From a virus: a stretch of DNA of 37,204 bases. The notes beneath the pieces were generated by a model. The model searched no databases and was not told the origin of the DNA. It saw nothing but the letters and a program-made list of their open reading frames with translations. Location of the stretch: UHGV virus genome UHGV-0014568. One strand, 5' to 3'. Below are positions 18,350-24,157 of this stretch, piece by piece. Within the stretch, counting starts at the first letter, position 1. The number at the start of each line of letters is the position of its first letter. The translations under genes and the position numbers were made by a program.

Positions 18350-18694
18350 TCAGAACTCTTCGATGTTCCAGCCGCCACCTGCTTTCTTTGGTTTAACCGT
18401 TACCCCGATGATTCGGAACGGATACTGATCTGCGGCGACTTTGGTTTTCACCCTGGCGTCGTCGGTCCAGAAACCTTTCACTTCGTGCAGTTCCATCTCG
18501 CCGGTGGCGAGCATCACAGCAAAATCGGGCGTATAGAACGTGTTGTCAGCTAACCGCAGCTTGATACCCTCAAATCGATACCAGACGATTTCTCCTGCAC
18601 GTTTACGCAGCTCAAGGTGCTGGCAATACGCAGATTCTGTTTTGTTCATCTGTCCTGTTTTGAGTCGACCAAGAGCCTGTATCTGTTTTCTCAT
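18350..18694 (-). CDS. Small PD-(D/E)XK-like (DUF1064/VRR-NUC-like) nuclease-fold protein
   Basis: 114-aa ORF with TPDF...ELHEVK...K arrangement typical of a minimal PD-(D/E)XK core; AGGGG RBS. Confidence 0.4.
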   Translation of the reverse strand: MRKQIQALGRLKTGQMNKTESAYCQHLELRKRAGEIVWYRFEGIKLRLADNTFYTPDFAVMLATGEMELHEVKGFWTDDARVKTKVAADQYPFRIIGVTVKPKKAGGGWNIEEF

Positions 18695-18811: not shown

Positions 18812-19612
18812 TTACTTGATAAATCCTGACGCCTTTCCCCGCCTGTATTCCTCCATCAGCCACTGCGCCGGTGTTATTCCCCCCAGGGTGGCGGCGTTAG
18901 GCATACACCCGAAACTTCGCCCTGGTGGATGGTAAACGTCTCTCCCTGTGTCCGGAGGCGTACTCATGGGTTCTGGCTTTGCCTGTATGCTGATCACCGG
19001 ATCGGGTATCTGCTGTCCGGAAGCCACCTTTTTCGCCCAATCATCGAGCAGCCTGCGCGCGTGTTTCTCAACCTCAATCTCGCTAAGCTGGCGCTGATAC
19101 ATTGCACGGCGGGTATCACATACGACCCAGTACATAACCGGATGCCGCCACGGGAATCTTTCGGGACCACCAGGATATAAACTTTTTTCCTTGCTGTACC
19201 GGTGAAACTCCGTCATCACATCGTCAATGGTGACGCCAAGAACCATCTTGCTGTCTTTGCACCACTTGATGAATTGCCCTGGCGACGGCCAGAACGGAGA
19301 ATCACTGGCGCGGGCGTGGCGCATACCAGCAGAAACCTGTTCACGGGTTCGGATCCCCCCTTCGGCAAACGCAGCAATCCACTGCTGTTTTGCAGCAACT
19401 TCCTGCTCTGGCGTCTTCAGGTTGGTTACCACTGCCGCCGGAAACAGTTGTTTCAACTGTTTGAAAAGGGCATCAACAAGCCTCTCTGCTGACATGTTCA
19501 CTACGTTGTCATTGTTGGTGTACTGATGCTCATAACCTGACATGCGAGAAAGGGCCTCTCCGTCACGGTTTTGTATTGCGGTAAAAACGTTGTTCACAAG
19601 AAATCCTCCCAT
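18812..19612 (-). CDS. Replication protein P-like helicase loader
   Basis: 266-aa ORF; segment QWIAAFAEGGIRTREQVSAGMRHARASDSPFWPSPGQFIKWCKD parallels lambda P (QWVLAFRENGITTMEQVNAGMRVARRQNRPFLPSPGQFVAWCRE) from memory. Confidence 0.7.
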   Translation of the reverse strand: MGGFLVNNVFTAIQNRDGEALSRMSGYEHQYTNNDNVVNMSAERLVDALFKQLKQLFPAAVVTNLKTPEQEVAAKQQWIAAFAEGGIRTREQVSAGMRHARASDSPFWPSPGQFIKWCKDSKMVLGVTIDDVMTEFHRYSKEKSLYPGGPERFPWRHPVMYWVVCDTRRAMYQRQLSEIEVEKHARRLLDDWAKKVASGQQIPDPVISIQAKPEPMSTPPDTGRDVYHPPGRSFGCMPNAATLGGITPAQWLMEEYRRGKASGFIK

Positions 19613-20457
19613 GCTTCAGGGCTGTTCCAGTGCGGAACGTTGTTATCAGGTAATGTTGATTGCTTCTGTCTGCTAATCTGCAGCCGCCTTGCCAGCTTCT
19701 GCTCCCACTGTGCCTGATGGTATGCCTTACCCTCAGCCATCCAGTAAATTCTGAACTCTGCAAGTTCCTGTGCCGTTGGCAGACTGTCCAGGTAGATCCC
19801 CTGCAATGAGCTTTTCCGAAGAAAGTCATCTGATGGCTGCCATTGTTCATGCATGACAAATTTGCCTAATTGCCCTGGCCCACCAGGAGGAACAAAGTTA
19901 TTCATCACGGCGTTGTTTGCGCCGGGGTCATGAGGCACAGAATTCCCGTTTTTTGTCCTGCTCTCCCTCTCTTGGTTAAATGACTGGTTATATGACTGGT
20001 TCTGGATCCCGTTTTTGGGATCATTCAACATCCCGTTTTTGGGATCATTCAACATCCCGTTTTTGGGATCATTCAACATCCCGTTTTTGGGATCATTCAA
20101 CATCCCGTTTTTGGGTATATTCCCGTTTTCGGTAACATTACCGTTTTCGGGTTCATTACCCCCTTCCCGGTTGCCTTTAATGTTCCCGTTTTTGGTTATA
20201 TTAAGAGAGAAAACCCGCACTCTTTTCGTCGCTCCCTTTCTCTCTCCGGTATCTGAAATAAGCCCCATTTTCATGAGCGATATAAGCCCGGCCTGCACGG
20301 TTTTTTTATTCAGGCAAGTGTCTTTAACGAGGCGTTCTATGCTGGGGTAGCAGAGGTTATATTCATCGGCTCTGTCAGCCATCGAGAGCAGTATGAGCTT
20401 TAATGATGAGCTGCCTGGATCTGTCTCCCAAGCCCAATCTGTTGCATGTCTGCTCAT
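19594..20457 (-). CDS. Replication initiator (O-like position) with DnaT-like C-terminal domain and internal iteron-encoded repeats
   Basis: 287-aa ORF; C-terminal GKFVMHEQWQPSDDF...YWMAEGKAYHQAQWEQKLARRLQ resembles E. coli DnaT; contains GMLNDPKN x4 encoded by the 24-bp iterons; GGAG RBS. Confidence 0.65.
   Translation of the reverse strand: MSRHATDWAWETDPGSSSLKLILLSMADRADEYNLCYPSIERLVKDTCLNKKTVQAGLISLMKMGLISDTGERKGATKRVRVFSLNITKNGNIKGNREGGNEPENGNVTENGNIPKNGMLNDPKNGMLNDPKNGMLNDPKNGMLNDPKNGIQNQSYNQSFNQERESRTKNGNSVPHDPGANNAVMNNFVPPGGPGQLGKFVMHEQWQPSDDFLRKSSLQGIYLDSLPTAQELAEFRIYWMAEGKAYHQAQWEQKLARRLQISRQKQSTLPDNNVPHWNSPEAWEDFL
20006..20101. repeat. Four perfect tandem 24-bp direct repeats (ATCCCGTTTTTGGGATCATTCAAC), probable replication-origin iterons
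   Basis: Exact head-to-tail copies at 20006, 20030, 20054 and 20078, followed by degenerate CCCGTTTT(C/T)GG copies to about 20215 and preceded by a TGACTGGTT x2 repeat; all inside the replication initiator gene. Confidence 0.7.
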
Positions 20458-22101: not shown

Positions 22102-22401
22102 ATGAACGTTAATCAGCAGAAAAATCTTCAAAAAATCATGCTGGCATTCGACAAGGACTACCGCCTGTCAGAACAGCTATATGACCGACAAGTTGAACTG
22201 ATTGAGAGCATCCGACTTCATCAACTGTCCTCAACTTTCGACGTTGTAACAGGCAAAGGCGTTCGTCAGGAAGTGCTGGAGGCAGCTAAAGACAGCCCTG
22301 AGTTCGAAGAACTTATGGATGCCTACCGGCGCGAGGCAATGGCAATTATCGCCCGCTGGGATCTGGCTGATCAGCTTGATGGGCAGAGGGACGCGGCATG
22401 A
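22102..22401 (+). CDS. Hypothetical protein upstream of the exonuclease
   Basis: 99 aa from ATG 22102 (track ORF starts at 22087); stop overlaps the exonuclease start. Confidence 0.4.
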   Translation: MNVNQQKNLQKIMLAFDKDYRLSEQLYDRQVELIESIRLHQLSSTFDVVTGKGVRQEVLEAAKDSPEFEELMDAYRREAMAIIARWDLADQLDGQRDAA

Positions 22402-23219
22402 AGCCGGGAATTTATTTCGACATCAGCAACGAAGACTACCACGCCGGTGACGGCGTGAGTAAGTCGCAACTGGACATGGTTGCCAAGAATCCGGCGCTTC
22501 TCAAATGGGTTCAGGCAGCACCAGAAGACGAAGAGAAAAAGTCTGCACTGGATATGGGAACCGCATTGCACTGTCTGCTTCTGGAACCTGGAGAATTCGA
22601 CAAACGCTTCATCGTTTCACCGAAATTCGATCGTCGGACAAAACAAGGTAAAGCTGACGAAGAAGCATTTCTTCGTGATGTGGCGGATATGGGTATTACG
22701 GTACTTGATGTCGAGCAGTGGCGAAAACTGGAGCTGATGCGTGATAGCGCAATGGCTCATCCGGCGGCACGCTGGATGCTGGAAGCACCTGGTTACTGCG
22801 AAGCATCAATGTACTGGAACGATGAAGATACGGGTGAGTTGTGCCGAATTCGTCCAGACAAATGGCTGAACGAGCACAACGTGATCGTCGACGTGAAAAA
22901 GGTTGCAGATATGGACCGTTTTGCACGCCACATCGAGGAATTCCGCTACCACGTGCAGGACGCAATGTACCGCGAAGGCGCAATGAGGGTTACTGGTCAG
23001 CCGCATGGTTTTTTCTTTCTTGCCGTGAGCGAAAGCATTGATTGTGGTCGGTATCCGGTACGCGTGTTCGAGCTGGATGCGCAGGATGTCGATGCCGGGC
23101 ACGCTCTGTTCCGCCGGGATCTGAATACCTATCACGAATGCCGCATCAATGATGAATGGGGTGGTGTGGAAATCATTAAACGCCCTGAGTGGGCACGCAA
23201 ACAGGATATGTACATATGA
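22398..23219 (+). CDS. PD-(D/E)XK exonuclease (RecE C-terminal-domain-like)
   Basis: 273-aa ORF; N-terminal YFDISNEDYHAGDGVSKSQLD and downstream D...IVDVKKV and YHVQDAMY motifs typical of phage RecE/YqaJ-type exonucleases; paired with RecT. Confidence 0.6.
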   Translation: MKPGIYFDISNEDYHAGDGVSKSQLDMVAKNPALLKWVQAAPEDEEKKSALDMGTALHCLLLEPGEFDKRFIVSPKFDRRTKQGKADEEAFLRDVADMGITVLDVEQWRKLELMRDSAMAHPAARWMLEAPGYCEASMYWNDEDTGELCRIRPDKWLNEHNVIVDVKKVADMDRFARHIEEFRYHVQDAMYREGAMRVTGQPHGFFFLAVSESIDCGRYPVRVFELDAQDVDAGHALFRRDLNTYHECRINDEWGGVEIIKRPEWARKQDMYI

Positions 23220-24157
23220 GCAACGACATCGCAAACATCAACGCACCAGTAGACACAGCAATCGCTGGAACTGCTGCAACTATTTTCAGCCCAGACGGCT
23301 TGAACCAACTGATGAAATTCGCCGAGGTAATGGCGCAAAGCCGCGTAACGGTACCGGCGCACCTCGCTGGGAAACCAGCTGATTGCATGGCCGTGGCAAT
23401 GCAGGCTGCGCAGTGGGGAATGAACCCGTTTGCCGTGGCTCAGAAAACCCATGTTGTGAACGGCACGCTAGGTTATGAAGCCCAATTAGTAAACGCAGTT
23501 ATCTCAACAATGTCGCCAACAAAAGATCGCATCAACTACGAGTGGTTCGGGCCGTGGGAACGCGTGATCGGTAAGTTTGTTGAGAAAACATCCAAAAACG
23601 GCAATCCGTATATCGCACCAGGCTGGACTCTAAAAGACGAAGAAGGTTGCGGTGTTCGCGTATGGGCAACCATGAAGGGCGAGGATCAACCTCGAGTGCT
23701 TGAGTTAATGCTGTCTCAAGCACAGGTAAGAAACTCCACACTTTGGGCCAGTGATCCGAAACAACAACTCGCATACCTTGCAACAAAACGCTGGTCTCGC
23801 TTGCACTGTCCTGACGTAATCATGGGCGTCTACACACCAGACGAATTACAGGAAACGGCACCGCGCGTTGAGCGAGACATTACTCCGCAAACGACCACTG
23901 CTGCGGGAATGAACAGTCTGATTAACGCTAAACAAGTGAAAAATCCTGATGAGCAAACGCGTAAAGCGGATAGCCGTGATCCAGAAGAAATGCTAATGGC
24001 CTTTACCAGCGCAGCGATGAATTACAGCACTGTCTCCGAACTGGATAAAGCTTACAAATACATTGCACAAAAACTTTCAGATGATGACGAACTGCTGGCA
24101 AAAGCCACCGACGTTTACAGCGTTCGTCGGGAAGAATTAAACGAAACATCTATGTAA
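23216..24157 (+). CDS. recT: RecT-family single-strand annealing protein
   Basis: ATG at 23216 overlaps the exonuclease stop (ATATGA) with an AGGA RBS; about 313 aa; the longer track ORF (23189) is an in-frame extension. Confidence 0.55.
   Translation: MSNDIANINAPVDTAIAGTAATIFSPDGLNQLMKFAEVMAQSRVTVPAHLAGKPADCMAVAMQAAQWGMNPFAVAQKTHVVNGTLGYEAQLVNAVISTMSPTKDRINYEWFGPWERVIGKFVEKTSKNGNPYIAPGWTLKDEEGCGVRVWATMKGEDQPRVLELMLSQAQVRNSTLWASDPKQQLAYLATKRWSRLHCPDVIMGVYTPDELQETAPRVERDITPQTTTAAGMNSLINAKQVKNPDEQTRKADSRDPEEMLMAFTSAAMNYSTVSELDKAYKYIAQKLSDDDELLAKATDVYSVRREELNETSM

Follow-up and report, generated by a model that had tools for sequence, protein, structure and literature searches.

Does the tandem repeat array inside a replication gene of the virus genome UHGV-0014568 mark a replication origin, and which protein would read it? 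We analyzed the whole stretch of 37,204 nucleotides (henceforth the window), focusing on the minus-strand gene that occupies the position of lambda O and encodes a replication initiator. The segment 19944-20198 is very probably a replication origin of a phiV10-like phage built on the lambda plan, with repeated sites (iterons) bound by the phage's own initiator and the helicase DnaB loaded via a lambda-P-like protein. An origin within the initiator gene is the ordinary arrangement for such phages. It is documented here for the large family of HTH_36 initiators, for which we found no earlier description of an in-gene origin.

An iteron array within the initiator gene

The window had previously been read from its letters alone. 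That reading (the original prediction) placed perfect 24-bp tandem repeats, degenerate copies and an adjacent twofold repeat inside the gene in the O position. Using Tandem Repeats Finder and a check of the open reading frames (ORFs), we recovered all of these elements at the same coordinates; that the gene lies on the minus strand had gone unmentioned. There are three arrays. The first has a period of 24 (20006-20115, 4.6 copies, 100% matches, score 220), the second has a period of 18 (20105-20160, 3.1 copies, 78% matches), and the third, with a period of 12 and 2.4 copies, is the adjacent TGACTGGTT doublet. Eight iteron copies stand in register, with start-to-start spacings of 24, 24, 24, 24, 18, 18 and 45 bp. 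The array lies within the initiator ORF, whose translation contains NGMLNDPK four times, in agreement with the predicted fourfold GMLNDPKN.

The core CCGTTTTYGG occurs eight times within about 190 bp (20009-20195) and once elsewhere in the 37-kb window. Dinucleotide-preserving shuffles put the expectation for the whole window at 0.20 on average, with no shuffle exceeding 1. Ten other short arrays were detected in the window, and the best of them scores 70 versus 220 for the iteron array.

Some apparent features of the array were rejected. The plus-strand ORFs 19980..20135 and 20015..20350 (GSFNIPFL four times) are not genes and the four terminator-like plus-strand hairpins at 20016-20107 are not signals, both being antisense by-products of the dyad-symmetric repeats. 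A -1 frameshift at CCCAAAA was also set aside: with a zero frame of CCC AAA, the site departs from the X XXY YYZ pattern.

A second repeat and a purine-rich tract adjoin the iterons

We compared the window with the family of proteins that share the N-terminal domain (N-domain) of its initiator. This family comprises 3775 clusters at 50% identity. Our locus set consists of 85 loci with this N-domain; 80 loci were fetched from different bacterial species. Past the last iteron, loci with at least three iterons (38 loci) carry a second kind of repeat with a GAAYC core: 86 cores fall within 50 nt of the array, a density of 45.7 per kb versus 1.6 elsewhere. The cores are present in two to three copies spaced 10-13 nt apart, mostly 12 or 13, and occupy more than one frame in 27 of the 38 loci. 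A typical example is CAGAACCAGTCATTAGAACCAGTCATAGAACCA, read as QNQSLEPVIEP. GAAYC repeats are common to a large share of the examined loci of the family (L002, L003, L087-L165), and we found no description of them in the literature. Many enterobacterial and Vibrio members have AAAGATCT just past these second-class repeats.

The order iterons, GAAYC repeats, A-rich or purine-rich tract (the tract being usual) was found in all 38 analyzable loci. On the coding strand of the window, the iterons are followed by AACCAGTCATAT AACCAGTCATTT AACCA and then by AAGAGAGGGAGAGCAGGACAAAAAACGGGAA. The AT content beside the window's iterons is about 55-62%; the family mean peaks at 64.5% between +20 and +40, and many members have clear A-runs. 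We infer that the 12-nt repeats and the purine-rich tract are the probable opening or loading region.

The iterons might instead be initiator sites with mainly regulatory roles (titration, handcuffing, autoregulation or exclusion of related phages), with opening and loading at some other position of the genome. Control functions of this kind are established for plasmid iterons, a variable copy number would be more easily tolerated at control sites, and there is no strongly AT-rich tract beside the window's array. Cloned lambda ori iterons give a replication-inhibition phenotype (PMC3349717). Nevertheless, we consider this alternative improbable given the uniform order of elements in the 38 loci, the parallels with the origins of lambda, phi80 and P22, which occupy the corresponding part of their own initiator genes, and the fact that no other repeat cluster in the window matches this one in size.

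The DNA rather than the peptide is conserved

The repeats might also matter at the protein level only, as a slippage-driven, flexible, low-complexity linker rich in N, G, P and K whose DNA has no binding function. This would account for the predicted disorder of the linker, for the polymorphism of 1-7 units among near-identical prophages, and for the perfect identity of copies within a phage, as after recent slippage. Moreover, Pro (CCN) and Gly (GGN) codons yield CC...GG inverted arms for free. The comparison across the family contradicts this explanation. A degenerate 12-nt motif has 203 matches in 37 kb of linker sequence from the 85 loci versus 17 in the 487 kb outside (5.5 versus 0.035 per kb, ~157-fold). 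In 30 of the 85 loci, the iteron motif occupies two or three reading frames. The locus from Acinetobacter pollinis (L104) contains AGTCCCAAAAACGG(A/T)AC three times consecutively, read V-P-K-T-E, S-Q-K-R-N and S-P-K-N-G, so that a single motif, AGTCCCAAAAACGGAAC, specifies the peptides VPKTE, SQKRN and SPKNG according to frame. The motif is inverted as well in a Burkholderiaceae genome (L142), and SPVFP is a further unrelated peptide. Iteron-encoded linker peptides are found in 115 of 125 full-length family representatives, and in 61 they derive from two or more frames. A peptide-level repeat therefore cannot explain the conservation.

A position matrix built from 197 sites showed that bases flanking the P-x-N-G codons, AA at -6/-5 and A at +12, are conserved in all three frames. 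The iteron site is therefore about 20 bp long, with the consensus AAyAnnCCCAAAAACGGnA. Two phages that share only the N-domain with the window have comparable arrays. Vibrio phage H20 carries 4.6 perfect 24-bp units (CCGAAAACGGTACTTTGAATAGGC) followed by 2.5 copies of AGAACCAGTCATT, and Edwardsiella phage GF-2 carries 2.8 24-bp units of AATGATCCCAAAATTGGGATTTTG, a near-perfect 16-bp palindrome. Taken with the covariation with N-domain subfamilies and the match to annotated phi80 sites (both described below), these data make it very unlikely that the repeats act through the peptide alone. The conserved entity appears to be a DNA site for protein binding, superimposed on a linker that tolerates it.

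Across 80 near-identical viral contigs, the 24-bp unit is present in 1-5 copies (mode two) and the 18-bp unit in 1-4 copies; one protein cluster (P0001) has seven units. The four full units of the window are at the high end of this range. Iteron copy number is evidently not tightly constrained, and the perfect identity of the copies in any one phage suggests that slippage or conversion is ongoing. Stx phages have six iterons versus four in lambda, and two of the copies are identical (PMC7466680).

The Arsenophonus nasoniae locus (L108) has four iteron-pattern matches outside the initiator linker, where every other locus has 0-1. One protein of the representative library (P0158) contains a 33-amino-acid (99-bp) higher-order repeat three times, each with iteron peptides of three frames (VPKAE, STEIG, VPKTE, SRKRN, PEIG).

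The N-domain of the initiator as the likely iteron-binding protein

Three lines of indirect evidence suggest that the iterons are bound by the initiator's own N-domain. First, the iteron motif accompanies the N-domain irrespective of the C-terminus or the downstream gene. Second, the motif covaries with N-domain subfamilies. We split the family by the position of a DTGE motif; a split by the wing motif did not work. Loci with DTGE before residue 73 have 111 CC(A/G)AWWW(C/T)GG versus 12 CCAAC(A/G)NNGG sites, and the other subfamily has 13 versus 81. Acinetobacter harbors both iteron types, so the covariation is not simply a host effect. Third, the sites resemble those of known initiators. The four annotated gp15-binding sites in the phi80 record are TTCCCGAAAACGGGAA; their location within gene 15 corresponds to that of the window's iterons, whose GTTACCGAAAACGGGAA, GAACCCGAAAACGGTAA and GATCCCAAAAACGGGATG share their consensus. 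The lambda iterons, ATCCCTCAAAACGAGGGA, are a close, longer relative.

Every perfect 24-bp unit contains GATC, and five Dam sites in 120 bp (20005-20094) form the densest stretch of the window, which averages 4 per kb. Control of the origin by Dam and SeqA is possible. That the motif is bound by a host or phage protein other than the initiator, such as SeqA or Dam-dependent factors at these five sites, is hardly credible: Stx-phage-derived replicons do depend on seqA (PMC7466680), but Acinetobacter and Vibrio relatives keep the iteron without GATC (AGTCCC..., GGCCCG...) and the motif tracks the N-domain subfamily even inside Acinetobacter, so GATC is an add-on of enterobacterial members rather than part of the conserved core.

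Linker enrichment, the use of multiple frames, N-domain covariation and the phi80 match are strong comparative evidence for the likeness to lambda drawn by the original prediction. Several points weigh against a lambda-plan origin in the window. The stretch adjoining the iterons is only moderately AT-rich, and an unwinding element is not obvious. All the window's iterons share one reading frame, so that the frame argument depends on relatives. The number of 24-bp units ranges from 1 to 7 among near-identical relatives, and the window's extra perfect copies may be neutral slippage products. The homology of the N-domain to those of lambda O and phi80 gp15 is weakly supported (hhalign probability 74%, see below). 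We found nothing specific in the literature on a phiV10 origin or on HTH_36-associated iterons.

Domain architecture of the initiator

We searched the initiator against Pfam and detected two domains, HTH_36 (PF13730) at amino acids 18-67 (E-value 2e-10, 40.7 bits versus a cut-off of 25) and the DnaT DNA-binding domain (PF17948) at amino acids 200-268 (1.3e-15, 57.3 bits versus a cut-off of 25). Phage_rep_O (PF04492) was not matched in this search. Structure was predicted with AlphaFold2 (AF2) from a 112-sequence alignment; a single-sequence model (mean predicted local distance difference test score, pLDDT, of 38) was discarded. Residues 1-88 form a confident winged-helix domain (pLDDT 94-98) with an H-H-H-H-beta-hairpin topology. 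The repeat-encoded segment, which separates this domain from helices at the C-terminus, has a pLDDT of 42-58 and no secondary structure. Residues 90-205 are disordered in the model and the repeats encode about residues 87-162, which places them in the linker between the presumed DNA-binding N-domain and the presumed loader-interacting C-terminal domain.

In a Foldseek search of the PDB, the N-domain came closest to DNA-binding winged-helix proteins, among them the Rep-DNA complex 5kbj. These are generic neighbors, and no specific structural homologue with an E-value below 0.001 was found in that search. A small profile-profile comparison with Phage_rep_O by hhalign aligned the recognition helix and wing (probability 74%, E-value 2.7e-5). 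Remote homology to the N-domains of lambda O and phi80 gp15 is possible, perhaps likely. A BLASTP comparison of the window protein with P22 gp18 and phi80 gp15 returned nothing beyond the repeat-encoded linker.

The C-terminal domain had been predicted to be DnaT-like, with a comparison to DnaT proposed as a check. In addition to the Pfam match, a phmmer search of the PDB aligned this domain with E. coli DnaT residues 85-170 (E-value 7.4e-21; 9zbt, 4ou6, 2ru8), to which it is homologous. The matching region includes an HxxQWxQKLARxLQIxR stretch. DnaT residues 1-84, which hold the N-terminal oligomerization domain and the PriB-docking linker, have no counterpart in this match. The initiator is therefore not a DnaT orthologue. 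It is often named "primosomal protein" or "DnaT-like" in databases, and the former name is misleading.

Exchange of helicase-recruitment modules

The C-terminal halves and downstream ORFs of the 85 loci were grouped by clustering. A P-like gene follows each of the eight DnaT-like C-termini. P-like genes also follow Phg_2220_C (lambda-O-like) C-termini and one other type, and in other family members the downstream gene encodes a DnaB helicase, an IstB/DnaC-like ATPase or a Toprim-DnaB protein. The N-domain and its iterons are thus combined with five or more different modules for helicase recruitment (P, DnaB, IstB/DnaC-like, Toprim-DnaB and others). This is the modular exchange familiar from lambdoid origins, in which an origin-recognition module (N-domain plus iterons) is joined to a helicase-recruitment module (C-terminal domain plus partner).

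The DnaT-like domain was found in 51 phage records, and where adjacent genes are specifically named, the name is repeatedly "replication protein P"; many rows show the initiator alone or carry no annotation. In RefSeq, E. coli prophage rows list "DnaT-like ssDNA-binding domain-containing protein" and then "replication protein P". The original prediction of a lambda-P-like loader downstream is confirmed (Phage_lambda_P, 1.7e-56). Its description of the DnaT-like/P pairing as unusual is not supported, given the eight of eight loci above and the DopC/DopE architecture already published (PMC5509034).

The phages SPN1S and Tyrion have a DnaT-like C-terminus with other N-termini, and a simple scan for repeats gave no convincing iteron array for either phage; they therefore provide no independent test. 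The SPN1S initiator (L167, 991-2271) has no recognizable Pfam N-domain, and the next gene encodes DUF1064, with no P-like gene.

GF-2 (L003, ~2950-2975), phi80 (L170, 6775-6805) and lambda (L086, 1165-1195) have GAGAATTCTG(A/G)CGAATCCTC in common right past the origin, where the lambda-O-type C-terminal module begins, and the window retains only GGGAATTCTG. This site looks like a recombination joint at which the origin module meets the C-terminal one. The stretch GAATTCTG, common to the window and the junction of lambda, phi80 and GF-2, is not long enough for interpretation. The P-like gene has its Shine-Dalgarno sequence and GTG start within the stretch coding for the initiator tail WNSPEAWEDFL (19594-19640; the GTGA overlap is described below). 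Providencia-type initiators (L091, L092) end in a near-identical tail, WNTPEAWRDFI; their C-terminal domain is otherwise unrelated and a P-like gene is likewise next.

A proposed mechanism and comparison with known systems

By analogy with lambda (PMC7466680), we propose that winged-helix dimers of the N-domain would occupy the eight dyad-symmetric iterons in the linker-coding segment, producing an O-some-like array. This nucleoprotein array would destabilize the adjoining 12-nt repeats and purine-rich tract and lead to opening. The DnaT-like C-terminal domains, concentrated by the array, would make contact with the P-like loader and its bound host DnaB, and possibly also with the exposed single strand. 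DnaB would then be loaded at the opened origin. As a speculation, the arrayed C-terminal domains may also hold the opened strand, because the C-terminal domain of DnaT assembles into filaments on single-stranded DNA within the restart preprimosome (PMC13377028).

A more far-reaching version, which we regard as unlikely, treats the initiator as a sequence-targeted DnaT. Eight iteron-bound dimers would align their DnaT-like domains by the GAAYC repeats, where these domains would polymerize on one strand, in the manner of DnaT C-terminal domains on lagging-strand DNA during restart, and keep the origin open for P-DnaB. In that case the GAAYC repeats would represent an origin element not recognized before, and the cellular DnaT-DnaC and DopC-DopE pairs would descend from such phage modules.

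The lambda origin (O, P) is a close parallel. It has dyad-symmetric direct repeats in the middle of the initiator gene, between the parts for the N-terminal DNA-binding and C-terminal loader-binding domains, a purine-rich, A-rich tract past the iterons, and a translationally coupled P gene downstream. Its iterons are likewise read in different frames (PMC7466680). Unlike those of the window, however, they are about 19 bp long and non-identical, the AT-rich tract is much richer, and there are no GAAYC repeats at 12-13 nt. The N-domain of O is Phage_rep_O in Pfam and its C-terminus is not DnaT-like. By HHpred, Brezellec et al. assigned the C-terminus to Phg_2220_C and detected HTH_36 in lambda O (PMC5509034).

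The phi80 origin (gp15, gp14) agrees in its iteron consensus and gene position, as described above, and gp14 is P-like. Its gp15 N-domain scores as Phage_rep_O rather than HTH_36, the C-terminus is lambda-O-like rather than DnaT-like, and BLASTP similarity to the window protein is limited to the repeat-encoded linker. The P22 origin (gp18, gp12) is annotated inside gene 18 and has one GAATCAGTCA and then an A-rich tract past the last iteron. It differs in its iterons (ATCGGTAAAAC), its Phage_rep_O N-domain and its partner, a DnaB-type helicase instead of P.

RepA_N plasmid replicons have iterated binding sites within the rep coding sequence. Their winged-helix initiator N-domains (PDB 5kbj, 4pql) are among the structural neighbors of the window's N-domain, but there is no detectable sequence relationship, and these replicons belong to Gram-positive plasmids with another C-terminal domain and another mode of host-factor recruitment. 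E. coli DnaT (primosomal protein I) shares the homologous C-terminal domain (85-170). Its N-terminal oligomerization domain and PriA/PriB context are replaced here by a putatively sequence-specific winged helix and iterons, and its partner is DnaC whereas that of the window's initiator is P-like. DopC/DopE of Cellvibrionales and Oceanospirillales (Brezellec et al. 2017, PMC5509034) have the same HTH_36 plus DnaT C-terminal architecture immediately upstream of a lambda-P homologue. They are resident chromosomal genes for which neither iterons nor a signal of origin activity at dopC were found (PMC5509034), whereas the present genes belong to a phage with a full iteron array. The iterons of the phage versions, none being found in dopC, are what is new relative to that work (PMC5509034).

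The phage and its replication genes

The window is the genome of a phiV10-like (Uetakevirus) temperate E. coli phage. It shares 97% identity with phages PAS61 and phiv142-3 over >80% (84%) of its first 25 kb, and its gene order is the same as that of phiV10. The initiator is 94% identical to phiV10p43, annotated as "replication initiation protein". The initiator stop codon overlaps the GTG start of the loader gene as GTGA, with a Shine-Dalgarno sequence (GGGAGGA) just upstream, and the phiV10 annotation also has a 4-nt overlap of the two genes. The P-like gene therefore seems to be translationally coupled to the initiator. The coordinates of all features are collected in Table 1.

Table 1. Features of the candidate origin and of the adjoining replication genes in the window
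Feature	Position	Strand	Description
DUF1064 gene	18350..18694	-	3' of the loader gene; same operon position in phiV10 and SPN1S
Lambda-P-like helicase loader gene	18812..19612	-	Pfam Phage_lambda_P 1.7e-56; likely GTG start at 19597
Replication initiator gene	19594..20457	-	287 amino acids; N-terminal winged helix, repeat-encoded linker, DnaT-like C-terminal domain (ORF and Pfam)
DnaT-like C-terminal domain	19615..19872	-	Amino acids 196-281; phmmer against PDB, E. coli DnaT residues 85-170
Purine-rich tract	19944..19975		Coding strand AAGAGAGGGAGAGCAGGACAAAAAACGGGAA, ending in an iteron half-site (D3 copy 19943-19956)
Second-class repeat	19973..20001		12-nt period, 2.4 copies; coding strand AACCAGTCATAT AACCAGTCATTT AACCA; 94% matches (Tandem Repeats Finder)
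Five iterons, 24-bp spacing	20006..20117		Coding-strand unit ATCCCAAAAACGGGAT; 5-bp inverted arms ATCCC/GGGAT around AAAAAC
Two degenerate iterons, 18-bp spacing	20120..20153		Coding strand GTTACCGAAAACGGGAA and GAACCCGAAAACGGTAA; consensus equal to phi80 iterons
Outlying iteron	20183..20198		Coding strand TAACCAAAAACGGGAA; 45 bp from the nearest iteron
Winged-helix-coding region	20188..20457	-	Amino acids 1-90; presumed iteron binder

We found the initiator gene in 424 of 5426 complete E. coli genomes. Strain NADC1036 carries it on the chromosome and also on NZ_CP076267.1 (hit H132); this 38.7-kb record is listed as a plasmid and looks like an excised circular phage genome assembled as a replicon. 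Elsewhere in the window, positions 22398-24157 hold two overlapping plus-strand ORFs (273 and 322 amino acids) where phiV10 is annotated with one RecE-RecT fusion (phiV10p37).

Significance

The analysis places the likely origin of phiV10-like prophages, which are present in about 8% of complete E. coli genomes, and corrects the annotation of a gene filed as "primosomal protein" or "DnaT-like" to that of a lambda-O-type initiator. The architecture of HTH_36, DnaT C-terminal domain and P, proposed as a bacterial domestication in the case of DopC/DopE, already exists in phages together with iterons, which bears on the ancestry of DnaT-type proteins. Beyond this phage group, thousands of HTH_36 initiators appear to hold their own origin in the linker-coding segment, with the site overlaid on the coding sequence in any of three frames and another conserved repeat beside it. 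This provides a simple sequence rule for finding origins in many proteobacterial phages and prophages.

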